Source of the DNA: Candidatus Micrarchaeota archaeon
GTDB taxonomy: Archaea; B1Sed10-29; B47-G15
Reading direction: 5' to 3'
Assembly: GCA_003660975.1 (NCBI GenBank)
Contig: QMVG01000008.1
Location: forward strand, 1 to 36,099
DNA: 36,099 nucleotides
The notes beneath the pieces were generated by a model. It had not been told where the DNA came from, made no database searches, and worked only from the letters and a program-made list of their open reading frames with translations. This document shows positions 11,735-36,099 of the stretch, in pieces (positions within the stretch are counted from its first letter, which is position 1; each line of letters begins with the position of its first letter). The position numbers and the translations under genes were made by a program.

Positions 11735-13002
11735 TGTATCATCAGACCTACTGCCATAAACAGGCTTAGAAGGCTTATCACAACAGTTAAAAACATTTGC
11801 TTAGCGGAATACTTTATTATCTCTACAGTGCCATTGAGATAACAGAGCAACCATGCAAAGCATATGCTTCCCGCATTTGCCAAAAACAGCGCAAAGGTAG
11901 CTGTTAAAGCGTCTATATTGCCAGAGCTGAGAAGACCCGCTATTGAGATGGAGGTTGAAGTGCTGCTTATCACACCGCCCACAAAGGCAGTTATAAGGAA
12001 GACCCCAAAGTTTACTTTTCCAGCAAGGTCTAAGAGCACAAAGAGGAAGAATATCCCTAATCCCAGCTTCGCGGCAACCTTGACATTAAAAGGAGATTCA
12101 ACAGTTATCGGTTTTATCTCCTTTTTTCTTTGCATTACCTTTCTCAGCGTGTAATATGCAAAGAATATGAACATTGAAATCATCAAGAGAAACGGTAGAA
12201 AAGCATAATCGAGCACCTGTGGCGCAGGCATTGCTACTATAATGAGATTTCTAAGGGATAGCCCTGCATTTATGGTAAAGAATGCAGCCAGTATGCTTGC
12301 TAGCCTCTTTTTATTCTCTTTGTAAAAATTGCTTACAGCCATTGTAGCTGCTATTGAACTCATCATACCTCCAAGAAAGCTTATTATCTCTATTTGATAA
12401 CTGCCTCTAAGGAAGCGGGCAGAGAGAAAAGCTATAAAATTTATTAAAGAAACCAGCACAATAAGGGCCCAGATCAATAAGAGAGGCAGTTTTATACCGT
12501 AAAGAACAAGTTCTCTTGGGATTATTGGATATACAATGCCAAGCAGTATGAGAAATTCAAGTAGGTCCCCTACCTCTTTTTGCGTCAAGTGCTTTACTAT
12601 TTGGTGTAACCTTTCCCGCGAGAAGAGAATAACAGCCACCGCTATTGACAAAAAGATGGCTTCAAAAAACATGTCATAGCCAACCATAACTCCAAGGATG
12701 TATGTAATAATAACAGATATACATGTAGTGAAGCCAGGTCCTTTTTTTCGTATCAAACTGTTTACATAGATTACAATAGCAAATATAGAGATAAAAGCCA
12801 AACCAATAGCAGTAAATAATGTGGAAGCATAACTGACAACCTCCTCAGGTATGACAACAGTCATGGTTCCCAAAAGTGAAATAAGGGCAAAGGTCCTAAG
12901 CCCCATAATCTCCTGCTTTTTGTGATACTCTCTTTCCATGCCGAGTAATGCCCCTATGAATATTGAGAGCAATATCTCCTGAAGAAAAGAGTACGTTATC
13001 AT
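11731..13002 (-). CDS. MgtC/SapB-DUF4010 membrane protein
   Basis: GALLGMERE..GLRTFALISLLG, GFTT, GG.ISST. Confidence 0.85.
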   Translation of the reverse strand: MITYSFLQEILLSIFIGALLGMEREYHKKQEIMGLRTFALISLLGTMTVVIPEEVVSYASTLFTAIGLAFISIFAIVIYVNSLIRKKGPGFTTCISVIITYILGVMVGYDMFFEAIFLSIAVAVILFSRERLHQIVKHLTQKEVGDLLEFLILLGIVYPIIPRELVLYGIKLPLLLIWALIVLVSLINFIAFLSARFLRGSYQIEIISFLGGMMSSIAATMAVSNFYKENKKRLASILAAFFTINAGLSLRNLIIVAMPAPQVLDYAFLPFLLMISMFIFFAYYTLRKVMQRKKEIKPITVESPFNVKVAAKLGLGIFFLFVLLDLAGKVNFGVFLITAFVGGVISSTSTSISIAGLLSSGNIDALTATFALFLANAGSICFAWLLCYLNGTVEIIKYSAKQMFLTVVISLLSLFMAVGLMIH

Positions 13003-13766
13003 CTTTCTCCTCCTGCTTTATGAATTGCAGACGCGATGCGCTTTATTAGCTCAGCGTTCTTTTCAGCATTTTCAACAATGTTGCCAGTTACAATGATGTC
13101 TGCCCCAGCTTTTACTTTTTGATAAGCTGTTTTTTCGTCTCTTATGCCTCCACCAACTATTAAGGGTATCTCAAGAACCTCTTTTGTTGCTTTTATAACA
13201 TTATCAGGTACTGGTGTAGGGGCACCAGAACCTGCTTCTAAGTAAACCACCTTCATACCTAAATATTGGGCTGCTAAGGCATATGAAGCAGCAATTTTTG
13301 GTTTGTTTGGCGGTATGCCGTTCACATCACCGTAGAAAGCAACGCTTGATTTCACAGGCGACTCCATGACAATATATCCCATTGGAATTGCCTCTATGTT
13401 CGCTTTATAAACGCTAAATGAGGCCAATGCCTGAGCCAAAGAAAGCCAATAGCGAGACCTTGAGTTCATCAAGGTCATGAAATATATAGCATCTGCATAA
13501 GGCGAGATTTGTGAAACACCTCCAGGAAAGATAATCACAGGCAAATTGCTGCCCTTCTTTATTGCCTTTATGCACATATCAATCTGCTCTCTGTCAACAC
13601 TGGAGCCCCCTACCATTATAGCGTCAACGCCAGAGTCCTCAATTATCTTGGCAGTCCTCATCACATCATGGCTATTGTTGAAATTGTCCTGGTCTATAAG
13701 GGCCATGTGCAATGCTCCTTTTTCTTTAATCCCTTTAATTATGTAGTCGTATACGTCGTGTTTCAT
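12999..13766 (-). CDS. geranylgeranylglyceryl phosphate synthase
   Basis: DAIMVGGS, PVIIFPG, YLEAGSGA, VGGGIR, GADIIVTG. Confidence 0.93.
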   Translation of the reverse strand: MKHDVYDYIIKGIKEKGALHMALIDQDNFNNSHDVMRTAKIIEDSGVDAIMVGGSSVDREQIDMCIKAIKKGSNLPVIIFPGGVSQISPYADAIYFMTLMNSRSRYWLSLAQALASFSVYKANIEAIPMGYIVMESPVKSSVAFYGDVNGIPPNKPKIAASYALAAQYLGMKVVYLEAGSGAPTPVPDNVIKATKEVLEIPLIVGGGIRDEKTAYQKVKAGADIIVTGNIVENAEKNAELIKRIASAIHKAGGER

Positions 13767-16482: not shown

Positions 16483-17235
16483 ATGAAGAGGGTTAAGACA
16501 GGCATATATGGTCTTGATGAGCTGATAGAAGGCGGATTTCCAGCAGGCAGGACAGTGCTTGTCTCTGGCGGCTGCGGGACAGGCAAAACAATATTCTCTA
16601 TGCAATTCGCATACAGGGGAGCAGTTGAATTTGATGAGCCTGCTGTTTTTGTTACTTTGGATGAAAGACCAAAAATGATAAGAGAGGATATGCTTAGGTT
16701 TGGCTGGGATTTAAAGAAAGCAGAGCAGCAGGGAAAGTTTGCAATTTTGGATGCAAGTGCTGCCAAGGTTGGCTTTCCATCTGATGAGAAATATACTCTA
16801 CCGCAAAGCGGGATAGATATTGATAAGCTTTTAATGAAGATTATGGACATAAGTCAGCAAATGGGGGCAAAGAGGGTTGTGATTGACTCCATAGCTGGCC
16901 TGGGCTTGCAGGCAGAAAATGTAAATGAGATAAGAAAAACAATTTTAAAGCTGAATTACCTTCTTTTAAAAACCAATTACACAACTGTTATAACAAGCGA
17001 AATTGCAGAGCAGTCTTTTGAGAGTGGCCCAATGATGTTCTCTAAATACGGTGTTGAAGAATATGTAGCAGACGGCCTTATAGTATTGCACTATTTGGGC
17101 ATAGGCACACAGTCCAATAGGCAACTGTATATAAGGAAGATGAGGGGAACTAAGCACTTTGAGGATTTAATACCTATGGAAATTACTCCAAAAGGCATTG
17201 TAGTGAAAAAGCCAGAAGACGAGTATAAAATTTAA
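16483..17235 (+). CDS. single-domain KaiC/RAD55-like ATPase 1
   Basis: TGIYGLDELIEGG, GGCGTGKT, RVVIDS, KMRGT. Confidence 0.92.
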   Translation: MKRVKTGIYGLDELIEGGFPAGRTVLVSGGCGTGKTIFSMQFAYRGAVEFDEPAVFVTLDERPKMIREDMLRFGWDLKKAEQQGKFAILDASAAKVGFPSDEKYTLPQSGIDIDKLLMKIMDISQQMGAKRVVIDSIAGLGLQAENVNEIRKTILKLNYLLLKTNYTTVITSEIAEQSFESGPMMFSKYGVEEYVADGLIVLHYLGIGTQSNRQLYIRKMRGTKHFEDLIPMEITPKGIVVKKPEDEYKI

Positions 17236-17690
17236 AACGTTCTCTTGTATGTGGAAGATGACAGCATATCGTAAATCTCGTAGATTTCAGGGAATTCCTC
17301 GTAAAGGCTGTTTATAAAGTCGCTCTGCTCTTCCATGTTTTTTGTCTTAACGTTGATTAGAAACCTCCACTCTCCTGTTAATGAGTATATCTCCTTTATT
17401 TCATTTTTTCTTTCAAGCTTCTTTATTAAATCCCTGATTTTGCTTCCAGCCTTTACCTTTAGCAATATATAACTGTTTACGTAAGGGCCTGCTTTTTCAT
17501 AGTCTATCACAGGCATGAAAGCTTTTATTATGCCTTCCTCTTTCATTCTCTTTATTCTCGAGTGCACTGTTGCAGTTGGTTTGCCTATAAGCTTGGCTAT
17601 TAACGTGGCATTTGCTGATATTGCGTCTTTATTTCTCATAGCTTCAAGTATCTCCTGATCCAAGGCATCTAGGTCTGTCATGTATTTCAT
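17232..17690 (-). CDS. Lrp/AsnC transcriptional regulator
   Basis: LDALDQEIL, TVHSRIKRMKEEGII, YSLTGEW. Confidence 0.9.
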   Translation of the reverse strand: MKYMTDLDALDQEILEAMRNKDAISANATLIAKLIGKPTATVHSRIKRMKEEGIIKAFMPVIDYEKAGPYVNSYILLKVKAGSKIRDLIKKLERKNEIKEIYSLTGEWRFLINVKTKNMEEQSDFINSLYEEFPEIYEIYDMLSSSTYKRTF

Positions 17691-18096: not shown

Positions 18097-18879
18097 ATGG
18101 CAATTGAAAGGGAACCTACAGGCATACCTGGCTTTGATGAGTTAATAGAAGGTGGTTTTCCGAGATACTCAATAGTGCTCGTCAGCGGGAGCCCTGGCAC
18201 TGGGAAATCCCTTTTTTCGCAGCATTTTGTATATACGGGAGCGACAAAATTTGAGCAAAAAGCCTTGTATGTCTCTTTTGAGCAAAGGATACCTGAAATA
18301 TATGAACAGGCAAAAAGGTTTGGCATGGACTTTGACCTTTTAGAAAAGCAGGGCAAGGTAAGGTTCGTCTTTTATGACATAAGCAACAGGGTGCTGGGAG
18401 AAGGAGAAACATACGTTGAGCTAATAAAGAGGGAGGCAAGAGAGTTCAATGCTAAAAGGATAGTGATAGATTCTTTAGTTCCTTTAGCCAACTTCCCCGT
18501 TTCTGTTGATGAGCTCGCTTCATACGGATTTATAAACGAAATAGACAAGTTAATGCCCATAGGCATAAGCGAGGAACTGCTTGTGAGAATGCAGGTACAT
18601 AAACTGATGAGCACATTAAAGGACCTAAGAGCCACCTCAATAGTTGTATCTGAAATACCAAAAGAGTCAAACTGGCTTTCAAGGGACAGGGTTAGTGAGT
18701 TTATGGCAGACGGAGTTATAGTATTGCACTATTTGGGCATAGGCACCACCTCCAACAGGTCTTTAGTCATAGAGAAAATGAGAGGCACGAAACACGCTGA
18801 AGACGTCATCCCAATGGAAATAGGAAAGAATGGCATTGAAGTTAAAAACCCCAGGGACGAATTCAAAGTGCCCAAATAA
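18097..18879 (+). CDS. single-domain KaiC/RAD55-like ATPase 2
   Basis: TGIPGFDELIEGG, GSPGTGKS, RIVIDS, KMRGT. Confidence 0.92.
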   Translation: MAIEREPTGIPGFDELIEGGFPRYSIVLVSGSPGTGKSLFSQHFVYTGATKFEQKALYVSFEQRIPEIYEQAKRFGMDFDLLEKQGKVRFVFYDISNRVLGEGETYVELIKREAREFNAKRIVIDSLVPLANFPVSVDELASYGFINEIDKLMPIGISEELLVRMQVHKLMSTLKDLRATSIVVSEIPKESNWLSRDRVSEFMADGVIVLHYLGIGTTSNRSLVIEKMRGTKHAEDVIPMEIGKNGIEVKNPRDEFKVPK

Positions 18880-18881
18880 GT

Positions 18882-19463
18882 TTACTTAAAAAGGTGTGGC
18901 AATTGTCTTTTAGTTATGTTAGAATTTAGATCAAAACCTGTTGCTGGTTTGGTTATGAATTTACAAATTTTGTCTCCAGCAGACACACAATTCGTCTCAA
19001 CCACTTCAAGATTATTTATCCCAAAGGATACCCTTAGCTCACCAGCAATGAATCCTCTAATGATGTGACATGAAGGCTCATTCGATTTTTTAGCTTTAGC
19101 ATACTGTGAATTTTCACATATATTTATAAAATAATTATTTTCTAAATCAGCTTTATATACCTCCCATTTTCCCCAACCCCCCATGGATGAAATGTCCATC
19201 AATAGCTTGGCAAGCTTAAAACCAGACAGCCTGGTTTCTTCTTTATAAAGCAGAGCTATCTTTTTACCTGTTTCTATTCCTAGATTATACATAAATGAAA
19301 TTCCTTCTTTTCCTAACCGTTTTACTATCTCTTCTTCCATACTTGCAAAGGGTCTCGCAGGAAAGATTACATGGGGCGCACCCAAAATACTAAACATACC
19401 ATCTTCAATAGTAAACTGTCTCGCAAACATAAGCTTCTTAGCCAAACTACTTACAGACACCAT
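18882..19463 (-). CDS. V4R-domain ligand-binding protein
   Basis: GWGKWE, PSCHIIRGFIAG, ETNCVSAGDKICKF; start ATG 19463 or GTG 19469. Confidence 0.85.
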   Translation of the reverse strand: MVSVSSLAKKLMFARQFTIEDGMFSILGAPHVIFPARPFASMEEEIVKRLGKEGISFMYNLGIETGKKIALLYKEETRLSGFKLAKLLMDISSMGGWGKWEVYKADLENNYFINICENSQYAKAKKSNEPSCHIIRGFIAGELRVSFGINNLEVVETNCVSAGDKICKFITKPATGFDLNSNITKRQLPHLFK

Positions 19464-19465
19464 AT

Positions 19466-20398
19466 TCACCTTGAATCAAACTTTCTTTTTTTTATTAAGA
19501 ACAATATGAAGACAGAAACTAAAATGATGAAAACAGATTTTACATTAGTCGCTGTTAATATTAATGTTAACATCAAAAAAGCATTAGCATACAAAAAACC
19601 TTCAGTATGTGTTTTTTCTAAAAGATCGAATGATTTATACTTCATTATGTTATTAATAACCAGCAACAGAGGAAGCAACATAACGAGCAAAATTGCAAAT
19701 TTTACCTCGATTAATCCAGAGCTTATTAGCATTACGAAGAGGGGATAAGGACTGAGTAGAATTATAGATGTTGCCATCTTGGCTCTGTCTAATGTTTTGA
19801 ACACTGTGGCAGTCGTTTTCAGACCAGCCAACAGATCTCCTTCAAAATCGGGCAGGTTTTTTACAGTCCCGTACGTTAAAAACCAATAACCAATTGCCAT
19901 TCCTATTACAGGAAATTCAAATATGTTCTTATTTATACTCCATGCAGCTAATAGAGGTAAAAAAACAGCTCCCGAAAAGGATATAAGGCTCATTAGGGGT
20001 TTAGTTTTGAACCTTAATGGAGGTAAAGAATAAAAAGCAGAGTCAAATACTGCTAATAAGTAAATGAGCAAAAATTGCAGCGGAAGGGGTACAGCTAATA
20101 TGAATCCGCAGATATAAAGAATTAGAGCAGCTTTTAAAACATTTTTTCTACCAATTTTCATCACTGTTTTGAACCTATTTGGTAAGTTTATCTTATCTTC
20201 TTCAATGTCAGTATATGCATTAATGATGTTCGTACTTGCTACGACACATATAAATGCAGACAAACCAAATAATTCATAGAATATATTATTACCAGAACTT
20301 AAAAACCATCCAATATAGTAGGATAAAATAATGAATATCCATGTTCTGGGTCTTCCAAGCTTTATAAGTTCCACCAACACATTTAAGCGGTTTTTCAT
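19466..20398 (-). CDS. UbiA-superfamily membrane prenyltransferase
   Basis: RP motif, NAYTDIEEDKINLPNR, YSLPPLRFK, KNLPDFEGD..G.KT. Confidence 0.88.
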   Translation of the reverse strand: MKNRLNVLVELIKLGRPRTWIFIILSYYIGWFLSSGNNIFYELFGLSAFICVVASTNIINAYTDIEEDKINLPNRFKTVMKIGRKNVLKAALILYICGFILAVPLPLQFLLIYLLAVFDSAFYSLPPLRFKTKPLMSLISFSGAVFLPLLAAWSINKNIFEFPVIGMAIGYWFLTYGTVKNLPDFEGDLLAGLKTTATVFKTLDRAKMATSIILLSPYPLFVMLISSGLIEVKFAILLVMLLPLLLVINNIMKYKSFDLLEKTHTEGFLYANAFLMLTLILTATNVKSVFIILVSVFILFLIKKRKFDSR

Positions 20399-20676
20399 TT
20401 CAACATCTCATGAATGAACCTTATCTTTTCAATTTCATGAGGCCAAATCACCACGGCCCTATCTATTTTTTTGGTATGTACCTTCTCCTCCTGTTTAAGT
20501 TTGTTAACATGGTATGAGATTCTTGCCACAACCCTTTTCTGATGTTCTCCATCTGGATTAAGGCCCAATTCTCTTGCTATGCCACTTATATTGATGGGCC
20601 AATGTTTTTCTATTACCCGATATATCTCTATTCTACCTATTTTTGATATATCCAAACTATTTCTCTTTTTTTCCAT
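20395..20676 (-). CDS. small winged-helix HTH regulator
   Basis: PINISGIARELG...ISYHVNKLKQEEKV. Confidence 0.75.
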   Translation of the reverse strand: MEKKRNSLDISKIGRIEIYRVIEKHWPINISGIARELGLNPDGEHQKRVVARISYHVNKLKQEEKVHTKKIDRAVVIWPHEIEKIRFIHEMLK

Positions 20677-20740
20677 ATAAAATTAGATAACAGAACAATA
20701 TTTATAAACTTTTGCATGGATTTGTCTAGATATATCCAAA
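20641..20740. promoter_or_regulatory. leaderless promoter of the HTH-UbiA-V4R operon with repeated quasi-palindromic operator
   Basis: TTTATAAA 20701-20708, about 25 nt before ATG 20676; GATATATCCAAA at 20645-20656 and 20729-20740. Confidence 0.5.
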
Positions 20741-20750
20741 ATTTTTTAAT

Positions 20751-21590
20751 CTATGCTAATTGATGGCCATAGGCTTTCTTCGGAGTAAACAGCTCGGTGC
20801 TTGCTTCCTCGGCCTTGTTCCAAAGCCTTATGAAGTAGTCCTCAAAGTTTCTAACAATGTCTGGATCTCTCACTACATTGACGCTGTATATCTGATTGCC
20901 TTCTGAAAGAGCAAAGCCAACTGCCTTGTTATCTATTACAGCAAACGTTGTTCCACTATTCGGCAGCATCTTAACCAACGTGTTTGGCCATGAAAGCAGG
21001 GGAAGAAATTTATTTAATTCTTCATCACTTAGTTCCAAGTTCTTTGGTATAATCAAACGAACTTCTATACCTCCTCTGAGTTTTTCATTTAATGTTCTGA
21101 CTAACTCAATACTTCTAATGCCTTTTTTGTATGTCGCAGTTCCTCCTATTATGTATACATGACTTTCTGCATCAACTATATGTCTTGCCAACTCTCTGAA
21201 AACAGGATTTTCGCCGATGATATAATAGTTCTTCTTTGTAACTCCATTTACTGATGTCTCTTTCAACAGTTTTTTCACTAAACCGATCGTCTCTTGCTTC
21301 CTATTTTCCAAGTCTCTTATCATTTCTCTGTGTTTTGATATCATCTTGTTTATGATTTCTACGATATCCATTGCTTTGTATCTTTTCGGCCTTCCAAGTG
21401 TCTGCTTCACGAAACCCATGTCATCAAGGGAGTCAAGTACAGCATAGACCTTCGTTTCTGGTATGCCCCCATATTTGGAGATGTCTTTGGCTGTTGACTC
21501 AGACCTCTCAAACAACACAGACAAGGCCTTTGCCTGGTACTCTGTAAAGCCAAAACTCTTTAGCTTTTCAACTAAATCTATATTCAACAC
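20751..21590 (-). CDS. TrmB-family regulator
   Basis: FGFTEYQAKA, GIPETKVYAVLDSL, GRPKRYKA; PLD-like effector domain. Confidence 0.9.
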   Translation of the reverse strand: MLNIDLVEKLKSFGFTEYQAKALSVLFERSESTAKDISKYGGIPETKVYAVLDSLDDMGFVKQTLGRPKRYKAMDIVEIINKMISKHREMIRDLENRKQETIGLVKKLLKETSVNGVTKKNYYIIGENPVFRELARHIVDAESHVYIIGGTATYKKGIRSIELVRTLNEKLRGGIEVRLIIPKNLELSDEELNKFLPLLSWPNTLVKMLPNSGTTFAVIDNKAVGFALSEGNQIYSVNVVRDPDIVRNFEDYFIRLWNKAEEASTELFTPKKAYGHQLA

Positions 21591-24093: not shown

Positions 24094-24906
24094 TTAACGT
24101 AATCTTATCACAGTTCCTCTTTTAATTTCTCCCCTCAGTGCGTCTTTTATATTTCCCTCTTTTTCAGCATTTATTACAACAGCCTCAACATTCACTCCTT
24201 TTTTGAGAAGTTCAATTATCTCCATTACCTTCCCGAACATGCCCCCTGTAACATCAACAGCAGATGAGCCGCCAAGCATTCTTTTTATTTCATCAAAATT
24301 TTCACTGTTTATTTCAGGTATCAATCTTGCATTTGGCTCTTCTTTTGGATTAGCAGTAAAGATGCCATCAACATTTGTTCCATGTATTATCTTTCTCGCG
24401 TTTAATTTCTCAGCTAAGAAAGGCGCTATTTGGTCTCCAGACAGTATAGAGCATTTCTGCTTCCTGTCATAAGCAGGCACCCCGTATAGCACAGGGATAA
24501 GGCCAATACTGAGAAAACCTTTTATTGTTTCAACATCCATCTTAACAAGCCTGCCTGCTTCCATCACAGCGTGAGAGGATGCAAGAACAGGGATAGCAGG
24601 CAAACCTTTTTCAATTAAAACCTTCGTCACTATGGAATTCAATTCATTTTGCAGCCTTTGTGTTTCAGCAAAAGCCAGCAATTGCTCATAGTTATTTATG
24701 CCTTTATGTATCCCTGTTTTCTTGACTATCTGGTGGCCATAACTACCAGCACCGTGAATTAGGATAAGAGACATGCTATCTTTGTCATACGCCTCCGCTA
24801 TTTCCGAGGCGATCCTATGCAGGACTTCAAGATTTACCTTGGGCGTCTCGCTGTGCTTGTCTGTTATTACGCTACCCCCTATTTTGAGTATCGCTAAATT
24901 ATTCAT
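24094..24906 (-). CDS. ipk: isopentenyl phosphate kinase
   Basis: LKIGGSVITDK, HGAGSYGH, SGD, DVTGGM..K. Confidence 0.93.
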   Translation of the reverse strand: MNNLAILKIGGSVITDKHSETPKVNLEVLHRIASEIAEAYDKDSMSLILIHGAGSYGHQIVKKTGIHKGINNYEQLLAFAETQRLQNELNSIVTKVLIEKGLPAIPVLASSHAVMEAGRLVKMDVETIKGFLSIGLIPVLYGVPAYDRKQKCSILSGDQIAPFLAEKLNARKIIHGTNVDGIFTANPKEEPNARLIPEINSENFDEIKRMLGGSSAVDVTGGMFGKVMEIIELLKKGVNVEAVVINAEKEGNIKDALRGEIKRGTVIRLR

Positions 24907-25285
24907 TAACCCTCACTTCATCTCCTTTTATTTCAATATCATCATCAGTTTTTATTTTAGATATGTCTATTTTATCTAGCATTGTTATATTGGATATTAT
25001 CGCGCCAACTGCTATTATGGCCTCGCTCTCTTCACATAGAATTGCAAGAGGTGCCTTTCCATTTTTCTTCAACCTGTACATCGTATAGCTGCCAACAGTA
25101 GAGCCCTTACCTGTTGGAAAGACCAGTATTTTATTTGCCACGCTTTTTCCCTCTAATGGATGCCCTTTTTCAATAACAACGCCTGTTTCAGGGTCAATGT
25201 TCCCATAAAAACCTATCGGCTCCTTTGACACAAGCGCTTTTCCCCTTACATGACCTTCCTTTATTACCCTAGCTTTTAGTATCAT
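24899..25285 (-). CDS. phosphomevalonate dehydratase small subunit (AcnX/DUF126)
   Basis: IDPETGVV...HPL.G, GKGSTVGSY. Confidence 0.9.
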   Translation of the reverse strand: MILKARVIKEGHVRGKALVSKEPIGFYGNIDPETGVVIEKGHPLEGKSVANKILVFPTGKGSTVGSYTMYRLKKNGKAPLAILCEESEAIIAVGAIISNITMLDKIDISKIKTDDDIEIKGDEVRVNE

Positions 25286-26492
25286 ACCAAGCACCTCTAA
25301 TGGCAGCATTAATGCATTCGTCGGTGCTACCAAACTTTATCTCAAAGCCCTGATTTCTGAGATACCATAAGTACTTTCCTGAATTTACTGCTATGTGTTT
25401 AAATCCAAAGCTTTTCATTGGAGCAACAACAGCACACATATCTGACAGTATCTTGCCTCCTGCCTTCTCTATAAGCTTATCATATCCTGCTCTCTTTGCA
25501 ACCTCTTTGACAGGCTTTGAGCTTGTTATCCATATAGGAACTTTTAGCTTGCTGCCTTTTACTTTAGATGCAATGTACTTAATTTCCTCAATGCTGGCAT
25601 GAGGACAACCAAAAACCACAAGGTCCAATTCATTTCCACCACTGTTTAATTCAGCGTAAATCTCTTTTAAGTCATCTGCTGTAAATGTAAGCTCGTCATA
25701 ATCTTCTGAGAGCATCTCAGCAGCCCTTGCCTCAGCTGTTATGCCTTCAATATGATACAACGCAATGCCTCCACTGGCAGCAGCAGCTGCTCCCAGCTGT
25801 TTTAGCAAGTCATTGTCTGCCTTCTTTATGCCTGTAAAAAAAGGCACAGCGTTTTTTAGTTTGATCCCAGTCCAATATCCCAGAGCACCGAAATCAGAAA
25901 AGCTCTCTACTTCTACCTCTACATTTACTTTGTATTTGGCCTTTCTGTTCTCATCTAAGTGGTAACCATAAGCAGCTGTTTTTCCGCAGATTGCAGAGGC
26001 TAGAGCACTAGGCCCTCCCTCTCTATTTGTTCTGGCTCCTATGACTGAATTGGCAAAGCTAACAGCAGAGGACTCTCCCCATGCAATGTGGTCTCCAAAC
26101 TTTGGCACATTCCCTGCTAAATACGGCGTGCAGGTGCAGGTAGGCGTTATGCCCAAACTTTTGAATACTTCTATCACTTTGAGCTGTTTTTCAGAAAAGC
26201 CCTTATCAAAGCCAACCTCTGCCCAGTCATCAAGGTCTATGCCTGCTGGGTTGAGCGTTGTCGGAACAGTGACAGTGGCACCTGATGAAGCCCAGTCTTC
26301 AAGGAATTCAAGCCCTGCTTCACCAAGGTTTTTGTAGCTGACTCCAGAAACCTGAACGCTTGTAATCGGAAGCAGTCTCTCTGCTTCATATATCTTTGCA
26401 AGGGCAACAATAATCTCCAAAGCCCTTTGCCTTGCCTCGCCCATTTCTCCGTTTAGCATGGCTTCCTCTTCTCTCGTTAAATACAAAGTCAA
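25269..26492 (-). CDS. phosphomevalonate dehydratase large subunit (AcnX/DUF521)
   Basis: SGVSYKN, TCTCTPY, ESSAV.FANSV.GARTNREGG, GCPH. Confidence 0.92.
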   Translation of the reverse strand: MTLYLTREEEAMLNGEMGEARQRALEIIVALAKIYEAERLLPITSVQVSGVSYKNLGEAGLEFLEDWASSGATVTVPTTLNPAGIDLDDWAEVGFDKGFSEKQLKVIEVFKSLGITPTCTCTPYLAGNVPKFGDHIAWGESSAVSFANSVIGARTNREGGPSALASAICGKTAAYGYHLDENRKAKYKVNVEVEVESFSDFGALGYWTGIKLKNAVPFFTGIKKADNDLLKQLGAAAAASGGIALYHIEGITAEARAAEMLSEDYDELTFTADDLKEIYAELNSGGNELDLVVFGCPHASIEEIKYIASKVKGSKLKVPIWITSSKPVKEVAKRAGYDKLIEKAGGKILSDMCAVVAPMKSFGFKHIAVNSGKYLWYLRNQGFEIKFGSTDECINAAIRGAWYDTKS

Positions 26493-27793
26493 ATGTAATC
26501 CTCCTTCTTTACTGTTTCATAATCCGTTCTTATAAAATCCTTCTTACTCTTGTCAAACGGAATTGTGGCATCTACACCTACTTTTGTTGTGTAATGAATG
26601 TCATCTACTTCATACCTTGAGGGGTCAAGAGAAGAACCCTTTTGCTTTTCCATTATCACTAAATCTCTATGGGCCTGAAATCTTGTAGCTATGGCCCATT
26701 CAACGTCATATGGGTTGTAAATGTCAATATCCTCATCAACGACTACGCAATGCTTCATGCTTGTATGTCCTCTAAAAGCAGCCTCTATTGCCCTTTTTCC
26801 GTCATCTTCTCTTTGCTTCGCAATCTGCACTATACCATGCAGCCAGGAACAGCCTCCAGGAGATATAAGCACATTTTTGCATTTGCATACTTTTGAAACC
26901 TCCTTGTATATTGTCGGCTCTCTTGGCATGCCCATTAATATCTTGTGCTCGTTTTTGCCAGGAAGCAATGCTTGCATGTATGGCTTTTTTCTATGCGTTA
27001 TCTTTTTAATCTCTATCACTGGCTGTTTCCTTACAATATCATAGGTCCCTGTCAAATCAAGGAAAGGACCCTCGTCTGCTTCCTCATCTATTATACGACC
27101 TTCAAAGATAAACTCAGCATCAGCAGGAACTTCAACGTCAACTGTTTTGCACTTAACTAAAGGCGTTTCCTCAATAGCATTTGCCATTGAAAGCTCGTCC
27201 TCGTCTTTTGCTATGCTAGTGGCAGCTGCTATCATCACGTTTGTTGCGTTGCCCACAGCTATCGCCACATCCAGCTCTCCGCCTGCATTTTTCAGGGCAG
27301 TGTCTGTGCCTCTTCTGGGAATTATCCTCGCAACAAAGCTGTTTTTCGATATCTGCATTAACCTGTGATAGCACATATTCCTTCCGTTTTCAGGGTCATT
27401 TACTATAACAAGAGCGCAGGTAAGATACCTGCCGCCATCATTTGGCAAGTATTTCGGTATTGGCAGTGCATCCAAATCAACGTGCTTCTCAACAACTTCC
27501 TGACATGCTCCTTTTTTAAGAATTTCAGCTTCCTTTGGCTTTTCCATAGCTGATAGAATTGTCTTTAATATCTGCTCCTTTTTCACTTCTAAAGCTTCTG
27601 CTACGAGTTCACGTGATGAGTTTACATTTATAACAACAGGGATATCATAGCCTTTTACTTTTTCAAATAAAATCGCCTGCCCATCAAAGGCACTGGCAAC
27701 CTTTGCCAGCTCAATGTTGCAGTCAACCTCTCTCTTTACCTTAATCAGATCGCCCTTTGAGTCCAAATATTCCAAAAACTCCCTAAGCTTCAC
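26489..27793 (-). CDS. UbiD-family anhydromevalonate phosphate decarboxylase
   Basis: EGPFLDLTGTY, GGCSWLH, VVVDEDID..VEWAIATR, GSSLDPS; operon context; start placed at GTG 27793. Confidence 0.88.
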   Translation of the reverse strand: MKLREFLEYLDSKGDLIKVKREVDCNIELAKVASAFDGQAILFEKVKGYDIPVVINVNSSRELVAEALEVKKEQILKTILSAMEKPKEAEILKKGACQEVVEKHVDLDALPIPKYLPNDGGRYLTCALVIVNDPENGRNMCYHRLMQISKNSFVARIIPRRGTDTALKNAGGELDVAIAVGNATNVMIAAATSIAKDEDELSMANAIEETPLVKCKTVDVEVPADAEFIFEGRIIDEEADEGPFLDLTGTYDIVRKQPVIEIKKITHRKKPYMQALLPGKNEHKILMGMPREPTIYKEVSKVCKCKNVLISPGGCSWLHGIVQIAKQREDDGKRAIEAAFRGHTSMKHCVVVDEDIDIYNPYDVEWAIATRFQAHRDLVIMEKQKGSSLDPSRYEVDDIHYTTKVGVDATIPFDKSKKDFIRTDYETVKKEDYI

Positions 27794-28319
27794 TTTTCCA
27801 CCTCTTATATAAATTATTCTCAATGCCCAAGATGTCCAAGACCTTTCCGACAAAGAAATCAGTTATATCCTCAATGCTTTTTGGCTTGGTGTAGTATGCA
27901 ACATTTAGCGGGAGAACATATGCGCCTGATAATAACACTTTACGTAAATTTTCAACATACGGCAAACTGTACGGCGTTTCTCTTGGACACAGGATAAGTT
28001 TTCCCTTTGTCCTCAACACGATGTCTGCCACCCGGCCTATCAGATTGTCTGAGTAATTATTAGCTATAGAGGAAAGCGTTTTTGAACTGCAAGGACATAC
28101 TACAAGGGCATCAGGAGCATTTGAGGAAGAGGCGATGTCTGCATCTATTTCTGAGGCATTGTAGTCAAAGTCAATAATATGTCCTAATTCGTGTTTCATT
28201 ACCCTCTTTGATGCTTCTGACACTATAATAGAAAGCTCTACATTTTTTCTCAATTGTTCACTCAATCTAAGGGCCACAGGAGCGCCACTTGCGCCTGTGA
28301 TTCCCAAGATTACACGCAT
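27783..28319 (-). CDS. ubiX: flavin prenyltransferase
   Basis: GITGASG, PCSSKTL, PRETP. Confidence 0.92.
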   Translation of the reverse strand: MRVILGITGASGAPVALRLSEQLRKNVELSIIVSEASKRVMKHELGHIIDFDYNASEIDADIASSSNAPDALVVCPCSSKTLSSIANNYSDNLIGRVADIVLRTKGKLILCPRETPYSLPYVENLRKVLLSGAYVLPLNVAYYTKPKSIEDITDFFVGKVLDILGIENNLYKRWKSEA

Positions 28320-28325
28320 CCTATC

Positions 28326-29405
28326 CTATACCTCCCTATTTATTAGGTATTCTGCTATGCCTATGAGATATTGCTTTGCTTCCTCAGCAAGCTCCACATT
28401 TTCTATTGCCTCCAAGGCCTCAGAAGCCAGCTCTCTTGCTTTATTTCTAGTGTAATCCAAAGCTCCTGTGTCCCTCATAATCTGCTTTGCTTCCTCAATC
28501 TCTTGCTCAGTTATATGCAGTTTTCCCAATAGGGACAGCAATTTCTTTTTCTGCTCAGGTGAGCCTTTCTCCAGAGCCTTTATAACCAGAATTGTTTTTT
28601 TACCATCTCTCAAATCACTGCCCACAGGTTTACCAAGCTTTTTCACATCTCCAAACATGCCTAAAATGTCATCCTGCAGTTGAAATGCCTGGCCAAGAGG
28701 AATAGCATAGTTGCTGAATGCCTCTCTCTGCTCTTCACTTCCTCCTCCCAATGCCCAGCCCATAAGCAATGGGGCTTCTATAGTGTATATGCTTGTTTTT
28801 GTTTTGTGTATATTCATCGTATGTTCCTCTGTGACCTCCTCTGCTTTCATCTCTTCTGATAACATGTCAAGAAACTGGCCGAAGTTTGTTGACTGGTTGG
28901 CATACTCATACACTTTGAGCGCTTCAACAATCCTTGCCTGGTCAAAACCAGAATTTAAAAGTGCTTCAACAGCTAGGCTCTGCACATAATCACCAGCTAT
29001 GATGGCCATTCCTTCTGAAAAACGCTTTGCCCTCATTTCGCTGCCTTGAAAGTGTTTTTTGTAATAATCCAGGTAAGCAACGTGCAAAGTGGGCCCTCCT
29101 CTCCTCAAATCATCCTGGTCCATAATATCATCATGGATCAGGAAATATCCCTCCATGAGTTCTATTGACGCAGAGGCTTTGTATATCTTATCCATCTCCT
29201 TTCCACCAACCCCCTCATAAGCAGCCACCATAAAAGCAGGTCTCAATCTCTTGCCTCCTCTCATGTTGTAGTCTCTAATCCATTCCAGATAATCGGCTGC
29301 TCCTGGGTACTCTTTTTTTGCATTTTCTATTTTCTCATCGAGCAATCGCTCTAACTCATCATTTATTTTCTCCCTGTATTCAGAAAGCTTTTTCAAAACA
29401 TCCAT
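28326..29405 (-). CDS. short-chain trans-prenyl diphosphate synthase A
   Basis: GGKRLRP, YFLIHDDIMDQDDLRRG, FQLQDDILG, GKPVGSDLRDGK. Confidence 0.92.
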   Translation of the reverse strand: MDVLKKLSEYREKINDELERLLDEKIENAKKEYPGAADYLEWIRDYNMRGGKRLRPAFMVAAYEGVGGKEMDKIYKASASIELMEGYFLIHDDIMDQDDLRRGGPTLHVAYLDYYKKHFQGSEMRAKRFSEGMAIIAGDYVQSLAVEALLNSGFDQARIVEALKVYEYANQSTNFGQFLDMLSEEMKAEEVTEEHTMNIHKTKTSIYTIEAPLLMGWALGGGSEEQREAFSNYAIPLGQAFQLQDDILGMFGDVKKLGKPVGSDLRDGKKTILVIKALEKGSPEQKKKLLSLLGKLHITEQEIEEAKQIMRDTGALDYTRNKARELASEALEAIENVELAEEAKQYLIGIAEYLINREV

Positions 29406-29415
29406 AATATCCACC

Positions 29416-30504
29416 TTAGAAGTCTCTCTCAACTATAAATCTGGTGAAAGCCTCAAGAGCCTCTTTTGCTCTGCCTTCCTTTAACAGGCCATTTACGTTT
29501 TCCCATGTCTCATTTACAAGCTCTCTTGCAAACTGCTTTGCATATTCTATAGAGCCGTATTTCTTCATGAGCTCTATTGCCTTTTTTATTTTTTCTCTGT
29601 CCTTTGTGTGCTCATTTAGTGTTTTTAGAAGCCATTCTTTTTCCTCATCTGTGCAATGCTTTAAGGTGTGCACTACCATTAATGTTCTCTTTCCCTCTGT
29701 TATGTCGCTTCCTATATATTCTTTCGTGTATTGGGCTTTGCCACTGGTAGCTGTTAAGTTTAAGATATCATCTTGTATCTGAAATGCTATTCCTATGGTC
29801 TCTGCATACTCTCCTATTTTTCTTTCATTTTCCTCGTCCAGGCCTGCCAGGACAGCAGCCATCCTTGCAGCCATTCTTGCCAATGTGCCTGTCTTGTATG
29901 CACACATCTGCAGATACTGCTCTTCAGTTATGTTGTCTGCATCGCCATGGCCATTGTGCCAATATATGTCTGTTCCCTGGCCAATGGAAATGTTTATCAT
30001 TTCCTGTGCATAGATGTCATACAATCTCTTCAACGTTTTTTCATCAACGCCAGGTCTGTTTTTAAGTATAGACACAAGAGGAAAATAATACATGCTATTG
30101 CCAAAGTTGATTGCGATGTCCTCCCCATACTTTATGTGCGCAGCTGGAAGCCCTCTTCTTGTCTCTGATTTGTCCTCTATGTCATCTATAACCAGTGTTC
30201 CGTTATGGACTAATTCTGGAATGATGGCAAAGTCAATATATCTGTTTGCATCTCCCCCTAAAGCTTCTATTAGGAGCATGAAGAGGACAGGTCTCCATCT
30301 CTTGCCCCCTGTTTCTAAAAAATCCCACATAGGTTCTATTATCGCTTTATTTACTGCTTCAACATCATATTCATACCTTGCCTTTCCAGCTATCTTTTCA
30401 ATGTCTTCTTTTGTCATTGGCTTTGGAAAATAACTTCGGATCATTCCATCTATCAGGGGTTTTTTCTGCTTCAAAATATCCGTAATTTTTATTTTGTCTG
30501 ACAT
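29416..30504 (-). CDS. trans-prenyl diphosphate synthase B (type III GGPPS-like motifs)
   Basis: GGKRWRP, HNGTLVIDDIEDKSETRRG, GQGTDIYW, FQIQDD; AGGTGA Shine-Dalgarno. Confidence 0.92.
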   Translation of the reverse strand: MSDKIKITDILKQKKPLIDGMIRSYFPKPMTKEDIEKIAGKARYEYDVEAVNKAIIEPMWDFLETGGKRWRPVLFMLLIEALGGDANRYIDFAIIPELVHNGTLVIDDIEDKSETRRGLPAAHIKYGEDIAINFGNSMYYFPLVSILKNRPGVDEKTLKRLYDIYAQEMINISIGQGTDIYWHNGHGDADNITEEQYLQMCAYKTGTLARMAARMAAVLAGLDEENERKIGEYAETIGIAFQIQDDILNLTATSGKAQYTKEYIGSDITEGKRTLMVVHTLKHCTDEEKEWLLKTLNEHTKDREKIKKAIELMKKYGSIEYAKQFARELVNETWENVNGLLKEGRAKEALEAFTRFIVERDF

Positions 30505-30580
30505 TTCTATATCACCTAAAACTCGTAATACTCTTTTTTGTGAGCGACTATATATAAAATTAACCACGTCAATTGTAGAA

Positions 30581-33574: not shown

Positions 33575-33646
33575 TCTAACTCTAAGCCCTTTTTACAGCA
33601 GCCTGAGAAATGGAGGCTGCGTCTAGCATGAGGACTTAGAATCAGA
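33575..33646 (-). ncRNA. long hairpin RNA directly 5' of tRNA-Ser
   Basis: 16-bp outer stem with 3 G-U pairs on the minus strand plus a 7-bp inner stem. Confidence 0.55.
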
Positions 33647-33937
33647 CAAAGATACTGCTATTGAAATCTTAAAATCTCCTGTGACAACAATAGCAGCCAT
33701 CATTACTTTTTTAAATAATCTTATTTTTATTGTTTTCGGAGAAAACAGTAGTTGGCAAAGTTGATAAACCTGTTGGCTCTTGAGCTATAAATTCTTTCTG
33801 AAATTTTAAGAAAACATACTCTGAACAGAGTAAAATTTAATGGATTTCTTACAAAACTAATCAAATTTCAATAAAAATACTATAATTAGAGATAATTACA
33901 GCTAACAAAATCAATTCAGAATCCTATAAAGCAATTG

Positions 33938-35303
33938 TTATCCACCGCCTGGATCTAAGAAAGAACAAATAGTATAGAGCATTACTCCGAACATCTTGGC
34001 CGTAATAAAAGGTTCTTTCGGAATAAACTTCAGAACAACCAAACCAACCAAAATATTAGCCAATATCCACAGATTGTATAAGCAAGCCGAAAACATAAAG
34101 TAGAAGAACCTAACAACATACCTCTTAGATGTCGTTCTTGCCTTGAAATCTTGCTTAACTCTATAGGAAGTTTCTATTTCCCATCTTTTTCCGTACAACT
34201 CAAATGGGTATTGAGCATTTTCTTCTTTTACATTAAGATTTGTAGCAAACACCCTTTTAACTTCGTTTTCGTCATTGACTATAACCAACTTAAACTTAAC
34301 CTGATCGAAATTCTTTCTTCCCATCACATAATCTAAGATTTTAGGAGCTTCGTATTCCTTCATCAATTTCTTAATTGCTGTATTCTGAACGGCTGGCATT
34401 AACTACTTTACCTTATGCTCCTGCAAAACCTGAATACATTTAACATTAAAGAAACCTCTATCAACATAAACATTATTGATGTTGATTTTCTTTTTAGCAT
34501 AAGCTAATAACTCATTAAGAACTTTATGTTTTTGGGAAAACACACCCATGAGAGTAGCCAATAAAGTAAACCTTCTCCCACTTTCAACAATGTTAATTGT
34601 AGCGAATCTAAAACAATGCGTAGTTCCCTTTTGAGGTTTTGTTTCGCAAACCATTAAATCGTTCTTATCTCCGTAGTAAAGCCAATCATGTAGATCAGCG
34701 GCAACATCTAACTTTTTCTTCTTGAAAACATTGTTTTTCTTAGCTATTCTGAAAATTTCTTCAAACGCTTTCATGAAAGATTTTTAATTCCTCTGTGTCA
34801 AATTTCCTTATATGATAAAGCAAAGTATTGGAAGCGGGTGTATTTTCCTTCATAACAAATCTGAATGTTCTAGAACCATTGTGTGTAAAATCATGATTCA
34901 TAGCGATATGCGTTAGCAGATCGAGAAATTTGCTCGTGTCGTATTTTGCAGTATAGTGAAGTTTAAAATCAAGATAAGGATAAACTGTTTCTTTGATTAA
35001 TTTGCACAGCTTTCTTAGTTCCTTAGTTTTAGATTGTTCTATATCCTTGTGATTCAAATTAAACTTGATCGGTTTAACAAGTTTACTTGTAGGAGTGAAC
35101 TTGGCATTACAATCCTTACACTTGTATCTTTGTTTCTTACCATCTTTTGTTATGTTATATCCGAACTTAACGACATTAGATGAACCACAAAATCTGCAAA
35201 CAACATTATCCTTATCGGTTTTTCTAAACCTTCCAGATTTGTTTCTAGAAATATTTTTATATTCTCTCTTCCTACTGTCTTTTGTGAGGTTTGGTTTTCG
35301 CAT
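33938..35303 (-). pseudogene. disrupted ISH3/IS4-like DDE transposase with N-terminal Zn ribbon
   Basis: Three collinear ORFs; CRFC..KQRYKCKDC, ADLHD, VDRGF, YGKRWEIETSYR; frameshift near 34770 and in-frame TAG at 34403-34405. Confidence 0.85.
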
Positions 35304-35492
35304 GGGAACCGCCTCACCCAGAGGGTTGGACCCCGCAAAGCCGCCTCTGGTTATCTTAGTTATGTTTTTTACATATTATATATGTTAATAGCACAACTAA
35401 TATTTAAATATTTCTATAGTTAAGTATATGGGTTATCCGATAAATTTATAAACTTTAAACAAATTAATTATGTTATAGGCATAGGTGTTAAA

Positions 35493-35957
35493 ATGAGATA
35501 TAGAGATTTGGCTTCATTTGGAAAACGTCAAGAATTCATAGCAATAGCAGAGCTCTTAAGAAGAGGTTTCGATGTAAATATTCCATTGGTTGATGATCAA
35601 CAAGTAGATTGCATAATAAGGAAAATTGTGAATGGAAAACCAGTTTATGTGGATATTCAAATAAAGGCCAGATCAAAAGACTGTAAGCCTTATAACGCAG
35701 CGAGATTTGCCGCAATGACAATAAATCCAAGAGATAATTATTTTTTCATCTTCTACTCTGAGCAGTTAGATACTTATTGGGTTATACCTTCAAAAGAACT
35801 TGTAAAAATAGCCAGCCAAAACAAAAAAGGAAAAAATAAAGGGAAATACCATATAAATCTTGCTGGCTATAGTAAAACCAAAAAGCTCGTTTATCCTCTT
35901 CAAAAATTCAAGAAATATGAAAATAATTTTAAATTATTGGAAGAGTTTAGAGGTTGA
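35493..35957 (+). CDS. PD-(D/E)XK restriction-endonuclease-like protein
   Basis: GKRQE, VDD..VDC, DIQIK. Confidence 0.75.
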   Translation: MRYRDLASFGKRQEFIAIAELLRRGFDVNIPLVDDQQVDCIIRKIVNGKPVYVDIQIKARSKDCKPYNAARFAAMTINPRDNYFFIFYSEQLDTYWVIPSKELVKIASQNKKGKNKGKYHINLAGYSKTKKLVYPLQKFKKYENNFKLLEEFRG

Positions 35958-35963
35958 TGTAGA

Positions 35964-36099
35964 ATGACAGAGCCATTACCTAAATGGGAAAACAAAATGA
36001 GGATAGAAAAATTAAAACCTGGAATGATTGTAACATGTAAAAGATGGAAAGAACCTATTGAAATTAAAAAAATTGATAGAGTGGGCAAATATATACATA
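35964..36099 (+). CDS. 5' part of a CDS, possibly an SNF2-type helicase of a defence island
   Basis: Open to the window end: MTEPLPKWENKMRIEKLKPGMIVTCKRWKEPIEIKKIDRVGKYIH; the helicase call is recalled N-terminal resemblance only. Confidence 0.4.
   Translation, partial: MTEPLPKWENKMRIEKLKPGMIVTCKRWKEPIEIKKIDRVGKYIH

Follow-up and report, generated by a model that had tools for sequence, protein, structure and literature searches.

The window analysed here is a stretch of 36,099 nucleotides from a Candidatus Micrarchaeota archaeon (contig QMVG01000008.1). It contains a three-gene operon that encodes a small winged-helix-like protein, a UbiA-family membrane prenyltransferase (hereafter UbiA-x) and a stand-alone V4R protein, and that faces the gene for a single-domain KaiC-like ATPase (KaiC2). 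Judged by sequence, UbiA-x belongs to an unnamed UbiA clade lying apart from the archaeal digeranylgeranylglyceryl phosphate (DGGGP) synthases, and members of this clade are recurrently linked or fused to sensor or output proteins. We tentatively propose that the operon is part of an intracellular circuit sensing and controlling isoprenoid status, made up of the enzyme, the V4R sensor, the KaiC ATPase and neighbouring regulators. The locus is a new variant assembled from known parts.

The operon and its gene products

The core of the locus comprises four genes:
18097..18879, plus strand: KaiC2, single-domain KaiC-like ATPase of 260 aa (Pfam KaiC, PF06745, 204.7 bits, in two stretches)
18882..19469, minus strand: V4R, stand-alone ligand-binding-type protein of 195 aa (Pfam V4R, PF02830, 40.8 bits; cut-off 31)
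19466..20398, minus strand: UbiA-x, membrane prenyltransferase of 310 aa (Pfam UbiA, PF01040, 84.6 bits; cut-off 34.2)
20395..20676, minus strand: small winged-helix-like protein of 93 aa, the operon's first gene (placed by Atlas clusters)

A preliminary description of this DNA had reported three translationally coupled genes converging on a KaiC-like ATPase, and both the open reading frames (ORFs) and the raw sequence bear this out. The 93-aa gene and ubiA-x are joined by ATGA at 20398-20395 and ubiA-x and the V4R gene by GTGA at 19469-19466 (minus strand), while a convergent gap of 2 nt separates the KaiC2 stop, with its last base at 18879, from the V4R stop, with its nearest base at 18882. 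The V4R start codon is GTG; an alternative ATG two codons downstream, at 19463, gives a protein of 193 aa, and the database copy of V4R (P0270) begins there. The helix-turn-helix (HTH) label that the first gene had been given holds in part. Its product sits with small ArsR-like winged-helix clusters in the ESM Atlas (score 0.95, template modelling score (TM) 0.79), but no Pfam or NCBIfam model matched above its cut-off, the top one being HTH_24 (E 0.11), and the protein is regarded as a likely, weakly tested HTH protein. No match to this gene was found by tblastn in the three other loci of the window type described below.

UbiA-x is very probably an active prenyltransferase, judging from its motifs and its predicted fold. 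Residues N60, D64, D68, D184 and D188, which form the NxxxDxxxD and DxxxD motifs, are invariant in 30 relatives and align with the Asp-rich motifs of AfUbiA from Archaeoglobus fulgidus; a dead enzyme serving merely as an anchor was considered and rejected because the catalytic motifs are invariant. When the AlphaFold2 (AF2) model of UbiA-x (pLDDT 95, pTM 0.92) was searched with Foldseek, ranks 1-16 were all UbiA-family chains, with AfUbiA (4tq3) first, followed by the DGGGP synthase 6m31, ApUbiA, UBIAD1 and the mycobacterial phosphoribosyltransferase. AfUbiA (PDB 4TQ3-4TQ6) is the best solved profile match (60.4 bits, E 1e-15) as well as the best fold match (E 6e-8, TM 0.61-0.72) and has the same NxxxDxxxD/DxxxD pattern, although its identity to UbiA-x is only about 21%. 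We know of no reported link of AfUbiA to V4R or KaiC. The parts of PMC4106721 that concern these structures describe them with geranyl diphosphate and dimethylallyl diphosphate bound and do not name the natural acceptor. A nearly invariant D-S-R ending (window about 19469-19480), preceded by a conserved E-K-x-H-T-x-G-x-x-Y block, characterizes the whole UbiA-x family. In an exhaustive phmmer search, 1.84 billion cluster representatives yielded 810 matches at E<=1e-3, of which 105 reached E<=1e-10 and 15 E<=1e-30; the clade is small. The nearest homologues of UbiA-x are 36-48% identical to it, those with names being labelled Aenigmatarchaeota, Bathyarchaeia or Promethearchaeota.

The window V4R is the sole Pfam-level V4R protein of its genome. 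Its AF2 model is of moderate quality (pLDDT 71, pTM 0.71) and over its whole length is closest to the phenol-sensor domains of PoxR, MopR and DmpR (E about 1e-7, TM 0.61-0.65). Lower-ranking matches of the model are the archaeal V4R protein MJ_1460 and the Bet3/TRAPPC3 family, among them a Bet3 entry with covalently attached palmitate. The Cys/Glu/Cys/Cys cluster C134, E158, C161 and C169 does not vary among 8 orthologues and corresponds in alignment to MopR residues that make up the zinc site of that protein. In the ESM Atlas the sensor domains of XylR, DmpR, MopR and PoxR (XylR_N plus V4R) match the entire 195-aa protein (TM 0.82). These sensors and the window have in common a ligand-binding module next to an ATPase; they differ in that the window sensor is a separate protein, that its ATPase is a RecA-fold KaiC-like enzyme instead of a sigma-54 AAA+ protein, and that identity is 16-18%. 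The V4R ligand is probably not a phenol. KaiC2 contains a Walker A (GSPGTGKS) and a Walker B motif, whose G-x-G-T-G-K and Asp residues, respectively, do not vary across 10 sequences, and it scores 140.9 bits on the circadian KaiC equivalog against a cut-off of 408, having a single domain and not a double one.

The following neighbouring genes bear on the argument:
12999..13766, minus strand: geranylgeranylglyceryl phosphate (GGGP) synthase of the PcrB family (Pfam PcrB, 192.5 bits)
16483..17235, plus strand: KaiC1, single-domain KaiC-like ATPase of 250 aa (Pfam KaiC, 246.9 bits)
17232..17690, minus strand: Lrp/AsnC-family regulator of 152 aa (Pfam AsnC_trans_reg, 39.5 bits; HTH_24, 31.2 bits)
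20751..21590, minus strand: TrmB-like regulator of 279 aa (Pfam TrmB, 70.3 bits; cut-off 25.6)
24094..30567, minus strand: isopentenyl phosphate kinase (IPK), AcnX small and large, UbiD-like and UbiX-like proteins and two polyprenyl synthases (Pfam)

Pfam matches agree with the preliminary description in placing an Lrp protein, a TrmB protein and a second KaiC nearby, and the mevalonate operon to which it referred is indeed present; its AcnX and UbiD/UbiX genes presumably belong to the archaeal-type mevalonate pathway. The TrmB-like gene lies directly upstream of the operon on the same strand, and the C-terminal part of its product matches DUF7436 at 30.3 bits, below the cut-off of 34.2. KaiC1 is nearer than KaiC2 to the KaiC genes beside UbiA-x in other loci (35-39% identity).

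UbiA-x and the housekeeping DGGGP synthase

The mundane alternative raised at the outset was that this UbiA is the housekeeping DGGGP synthase. As the enzyme of the second step of archaeol assembly, it would then lie among regulators by chance. The GGGP synthase and mevalonate genes in the same window fit with such a role, as does the close structural match between UbiA-x and chain 6m31 (TM 0.66-0.73). The archaeal DGGGP synthase of M. jannaschii (PDB 6M31/7BPU) indeed resembles UbiA-x in its UbiA fold, its lipid-gene neighbourhood and a prenyl-diphosphate donor, which for UbiA-x is presumed. It differs in forming a separate clade, and UbiA-x falls far below its equivalog cut-offs, with 42.2 bits against 296 for PRK12882 and 39.6 against 353 for PRK12883. 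The family profile of UbiA-x gives 43 bits on 6m31, and its top named NCBIfam model is the chlorophyll synthase ChlG, at 58 bits against a cut-off of 313.

A separate and much better candidate is found elsewhere in the window's own genome (G000; 1.33 Mb in 130 contigs, 89.7% complete), which has three UbiA genes, located in the window and on contigs C16 and C5. Against PRK12884 the C16 protein scores 231.9 bits, against the DGGGP synthase model PRK12882 167.4 bits, and against chain 6m31 of M. jannaschii, in a full-length match, 108.7 bits (E 4e-30). It stays below the NCBI curated cut-offs and is the best, though not proven, candidate DGGGP synthase in the genome. In a FastTree phylogeny of 155 rows UbiA-x and the C16 protein lie on opposite sides of a branch with 97% support, and in an IQ-TREE phylogeny of 48 rows (LG+C20, SH-aLRT) 37 UbiA-x rows are split at 98% from 11 rows on the DGGGP synthase and ChlG side. 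The DGGGP synthase copies of relatives fall in the clade of the C16 copy, and UbiA-x outside it. At E<=1e-22, none of 16 sampled UbiA-x members had an NCBIfam match, against all 7 sampled from the other side. Distribution also argues against a housekeeping role: among 31 species genomes of the phylum, UbiA-x was found at E<=1e-20 in G000 only, the others being 61-98% complete, so that the remaining genomes are scored as 'not found'. The better candidate on C16 and the tree separation at 97-98% lead us, on sequence grounds, to regard the housekeeping assignment as refuted and to leave it a barely appreciable probability.

The third UbiA protein of the genome (contig C5, L003:1423-2286; 287 aa) has diverged strongly, as its long branch shows, and its gene has a GC content of 0.31; the genes next to it gave no family matches.

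Partners of UbiA-x, V4R and KaiC2 in other genomes

Neighbourhoods of UbiA-x were typed by tblastn and Pfam in 104 loci, 24 from species genomes and 80 from metagenomes, the latter being the best of 202. The predominant arrangement, present in 93 of them and belonging to soil Bathyarchaeia, consists of a divergent KaiC gene, then UbiA-x, then two KaiC-like genes. The first downstream KaiC gene overlaps or directly abuts the UbiA-x stop in the three loci of this type with ORFs listed, and the upstream KaiC gene is present in every one of the 68 loci whose sequence extends 2.5 kb or more upstream. Three other loci (L025, L046 and L054) are window-like, with TrmB, UbiA-x and V4R facing a convergent KaiC, and their UbiA-x proteins are 45-47% identical to that of the window; the linkage of UbiA and V4R with KaiC and TrmB recurs in them. 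The TrmB plus DUF7436-like architecture likewise recurs upstream of UbiA-x in these three loci. They share ribosomal protein L35Ae beyond KaiC and are therefore mutually related, while the window has only the TrmB-UbiA-V4R-KaiC block in common with them, the outer flanks being different. UbiA-x faces a PAS histidine kinase in a further three loci (L021, L022 and L048), and three were too short for typing.

One branch of the clade carries its signalling partner within the same polypeptide. The N-terminal 282 residues of the 676-aa protein P0274 are 37% identical to UbiA-x and keep its motifs, and precomputed Pfam annotation assigns GAF domains to the remainder, which also includes a GGDEF domain matching solved diguanylate cyclases at 119 bits. 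P0274 lies in a third UbiA-x subclade (98%). The type of signalling partner differs among the three subclades, and in that of P0274 it is fused to the enzyme. Fusions to UbiE/MenG-type methyltransferases or, in one case, to a MacB/FtsX permease occur in remoter relatives with about 30% identity to UbiA-x.

V4R proteins are joined to KaiC and to other sensor domains as well. A word-indexed protein search with the window V4R returned four proteins. A KaiC-V4R fusion of 418 aa (L134:280-1536) is encoded in genome G054, and a GAF-PAS-V4R protein of 510 aa (L135:1489-3021) in G060. The ESM Atlas lists a 423-aa cluster with V4R and, in 36% of its members, KaiC. Among relatives, 6 of 11 loci with a V4R match have a KaiC-like gene within about 1.5 kb.

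Within the organism's own order, genome G015 has orthologues of KaiC1 (68% identity, syntenic), KaiC2 (64-65%) and V4R (40%). Its IPK gene is immediately followed by the V4R gene, which shares its strand with KaiC2 and is located a short way upstream of it, with genes for deoxyhypusine synthase and a polyprenyl synthase next; no UbiA-x, HTH or TrmB gene is present at this V4R-KaiC2 locus, and the Lrp/AsnC gene is missing from the G015 locus syntenic with the window. This arrangement indicates that V4R and KaiC2 are an older pair tied to isoprenoid genes. Since the pair follows IPK without UbiA-x, V4R is apparently not dedicated to the product of this enzyme, which suggests that the pair reads a general isoprenoid metabolite. 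Other genomes of the phylum show related combinations: G013 has a polyprenyl synthase gene beside a UbiA-V4R set with a geranylgeranyl reductase (GGR)-like gene, and G025 has KaiC-V4R-KaiC beside a GGR-like-UbiA pair facing KaiC. KaiC lies directly upstream of the DGGGP synthase-like UbiA both on contig C16 of G000 (L142:5434-7022), where the two genes overlap, and in G005 of the same order (L006).

KaiC2 carries an insert of about 20 residues after the Walker B motif, which it shares with the G015 KaiC2 (L138:4825-5586) and with a KaiC on contig C3 of G000 (L141:4728-5495) and which is missing from the other aligned KaiC-like proteins. The C3 gene is followed by a weak V4R-like gene. As all three carriers adjoin a V4R or V4R-like gene, the insert may be a docking element.

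Some observations on individual loci are added here. In L046 a GGR-like flavin adenine dinucleotide (FAD) enzyme gene (L046:1474-2532) is divergent to UbiA-x, and a NUDIX gene follows TrmB. L026 and L044, titled 'bacterium' and 'Dormiibacterota', carry the Bathyarchaeia-type cluster of KaiC followed by UbiA-x-KaiC-KaiC and are probably mis-binned archaeal contigs. A link to carotenoids was considered and dropped: a Caroten_synth gene adjoins the L034 cluster, but L042 has none and neither has L024, and G000 gave no match to PF04240.

The proposed circuit and its alternatives

We favour an intracellular circuit because the branches of UbiA-x partner a cytoplasmic ligand-binding domain and an output (V4R with KaiC, PAS with a kinase, GAF with GGDEF) and because V4R-KaiC is tied to isoprenoid genes. 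The ligand, the binding steps, the direction of the signal and its targets are inferred as follows. UbiA-x would use a prenyl diphosphate supplied by the neighbouring mevalonate and polyprenyl synthase genes, and the co-translated V4R would bind the same hydrophobic compound, either the substrate or the product of UbiA-x. The ligand state of V4R could then be passed to KaiC2, by analogy with the XylR-type activators, in which the same sensor domain gates the ATPase. The output would be transcriptional, exerted through the TrmB-like, ArsR-like and Lrp regulators on lipid and isoprenoid genes.

The closest precedent for the proposed working of this module is human UBIAD1, which is among the fold matches of UbiA-x (PDB 8DJK). 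As described in PMC9579336, it is a UbiA enzyme that senses geranylgeranyl diphosphate and controls the degradation of HMG-CoA reductase (HMGCR) in mevalonate feedback. UBIAD1 is nevertheless eukaryotic and partners HMGCR and the endoplasmic-reticulum-associated degradation machinery, without V4R or KaiC; the likeness concerns the proposed mechanism and not membership of one system. Archaeal KaiC hubs offer a second point of comparison, with single-domain KaiC-like ATPases beside sensor or regulator genes, as in the window, and with KaiC-sensor fusions. Makarova, Galperin and Koonin (2017, mBio) reportedly proposed archaeal KaiC-like ATPases as signal-transduction hubs. The passages of PMC5847659 on this subject cite the KaiC hubs and mention V4R-like output domains. 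In the full-text literature on UbiA with KaiC, V4R or GGDEF no such module was found, a search whose scope did not take in the 2017 mBio paper with its tables, which may list one.

Several findings weigh against the circuit. The V4R-KaiC2 pair of G015 exists without UbiA-x and so does not need the enzyme. The 93 soil Bathyarchaeia loci, nearly copies of one another, fall into a single cluster at 60% UbiA identity, and the 104 loci reduce to about seven independent lineage clusters, a small independent sample. In two of these clusters (L051 and L120, 2 of the 104 loci) UbiA-x lacks a signalling neighbour. Orthology does not extend to the adjacent KaiC genes, which are 29-43% identical between loci, genes of the KaiC type are frequent (about six in the 1.33 Mb of G000), and both the histidine kinases and KaiC2 are convergent to the operon and hence on separate transcripts. 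The UbiA-x-GAF-GGDEF fusion is a single database protein, found on two contigs. A purely biosynthetic role of V4R as a substrate carrier would fit the tight UbiA-V4R coupling equally well.

Part of this evidence, namely the frequency of KaiC-like genes, the lack of orthology among neighbouring KaiCs, the convergent KaiC2 and the near-copies that make up most of the supporting loci, would also be expected if there were no functional link at all and adjacency reflected retained synteny or chance in KaiC-rich genomes. We consider this very unlikely. The TrmB-UbiA-V4R-KaiC block is kept at 45-47% UbiA identity while the outer genes differ, and the signalling partners vary among three subclades, with one fusion. 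Moreover, of the three UbiA genes in G000, two are at most two genes away from one of the approximately six KaiC genes, for which the probability by chance is near 1e-3 (a rough estimate assuming about 1,400 genes). Overall, comparative sequence data lend moderate support to a functional triad of UbiA-x, V4R and KaiC.

Specialised biosynthesis is a more serious, though still unlikely, rival. UbiA-x would then make a tailored lipid, a quinone-like or another prenylated compound, V4R would be a BchJ-like carrier of the hydrophobic acceptor, and KaiC and TrmB would regulate the pathway or be neighbours by descent. The coupling of V4R to UbiA, or its position closely downstream, in the window, L025, L046, L054 and G013 agrees with a carrier, and so do the GGR-like flavoenzymes that accompany the UbiA-V4R pair in L046, G013 and G025 and the methyltransferase fusions of the distant relatives. 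ChlG is the best named model for UbiA-x, and chlorophyll synthase clusters include a V4R gene, bchJ: in bacteriochlorophyll clusters bchJ occurs with bchG and, in some, with bchP. The loci of UbiA-x resemble these clusters in combining V4R with a UbiA-type prenyltransferase and, in L046, G013 and G025, with a GGR-like enzyme; the archaeon differs in showing no tetrapyrrole context, and the KaiC and TrmB partners are absent from the bacteriochlorophyll clusters. Apart from the GGR-like genes of some loci, however, no further pathway enzymes are conserved beside UbiA-x. The fusions of V4R to KaiC and to GAF-PAS are signalling architectures, G015 keeps V4R-KaiC2 without any UbiA at the locus, and the UbiA-x-GAF-GGDEF fusion is hard to square with plain biosynthesis.

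The base composition of the operon bears on a further alternative. Its AT-richness, noticed from the start, is reproduced: GC and GC at third codon positions (GC3) are 0.355 and 0.296 for V4R, 0.326 and 0.309 for UbiA-x, and 0.355 and 0.351 for the 93-aa gene, against 0.424 and 0.452 for KaiC2 and 0.392 and 0.414 for TrmB. The 1.8-kb operon is in the lowest 1.0% by GC among 2512 genome windows of 1.8 kb, a comparison whose genome-wide GC mean is inflated by contigs C6, C11 and C12 of G000 (GC 0.49-0.54, against about 0.40 for the main contigs), which may be mis-binned. Joint acquisition of the three genes is plausible. The V4R of G015 has an ordinary composition (GC3 0.571), and the genomes to which the three window-type loci belong are AT-rich (GC3 0.14-0.34). 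The V4R tree, with supports of 83-85, leaves vertical descent and co-transfer with UbiA-x undecided; the window V4R scores 159 bits to the V4R of G015 and 133-148 bits to those of the window-type loci.

The preliminary description had combined the operon and KaiC2 into a quorum-sensing-like system, in which V4R receives a diffusible prenylated signal made by UbiA-x and KaiC passes it on; synthase and receptor might be exchanged as a cassette. The elements of synthase, sensor and KaiC relay survive to the extent that the linkage recurs and other branches are joined to sensors, whereas the diffusible signal is unsupported. The recurrence of an enzyme with a ligand-binding domain and an output (V4R and KaiC, PAS kinase, GAF-GGDEF) can be read in this sense, and the compositional anomaly covers exactly the 93-aa gene, UbiA-x and V4R and spares KaiC2 and TrmB. 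The ordinary composition of the G015 V4R fits with joint acquisition of enzyme and sensor, UbiA-x is found in only one of the 31 phylum genomes, and a permease of the MacB/FtsX type is fused to one distant relative. Against this, no exporter, density-linked regulator or evidence of secretion was seen in the four window-type loci, V4R is cytoplasmic, V4R-KaiC2 stands beside IPK in G015 without the enzyme, and the V4R tree does not resolve whether V4R arrived together with UbiA-x. A diffusible signal is accordingly rated improbable, and we are equally doubtful of the idea that UbiA-x and V4R are a synthase and a receptor matched to each other through a prenylated signalling lipid, forming a cassette that moves between archaea and fits into a resident KaiC/TrmB frame.

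A putative control region lies upstream of the operon:
20645..20750, minus strand: candidate promoter and operator pair of the operon (read from the sequence; function putative)
A TATA-like TTTATAAAT lies on the minus strand at about 20700-20709, upstream of the 93-aa gene, and is flanked by two exact copies of GATATATCCAAA at 20645-20656 and 20729-20740, 84 nt apart. This repeat (family D1) has four matches in the window at <=1 mismatch against 0.40 expected, and its core GATATATC is palindromic; the two copies are a candidate operator pair for the TrmB-like or ArsR-like regulator. Sigma-70 promoters and terminators, scanned for with a method that suits bacteria and not archaea, were as numerous as chance predicts.

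To our knowledge, the regulation of isoprenoid membrane-lipid synthesis in archaea is not known, and almost no inputs have been assigned to archaeal KaiC-like ATPases and stand-alone V4R proteins. The locus and the links of the UbiA-x clade provide a concrete and testable candidate in which a membrane prenyltransferase, a sensor of hydrophobic ligands and an ATPase would be coupled next to mevalonate genes. If the circuit is real, KaiC-like hubs would gain their first metabolic input, and the UBIAD1-style idea of a UbiA enzyme as an isoprenoid sensor would reach prokaryotes. If a synthase-receptor pair were real instead, it would be an archaeal isoprenoid counterpart of the bacterial autoinducer synthase-receptor pairs, with the same enzyme clade feeding histidine kinases and diguanylate cyclases in other lineages. 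The parts of the module are small and, apart from the enzyme, mostly soluble, which suits them to in-vitro work.

Elsewhere in the window, positions 33600-36099 form a second AT-rich stretch (GC 0.30-0.34) with three short ORFs that carry no annotation and one weak match to PD-(D/E)XK.

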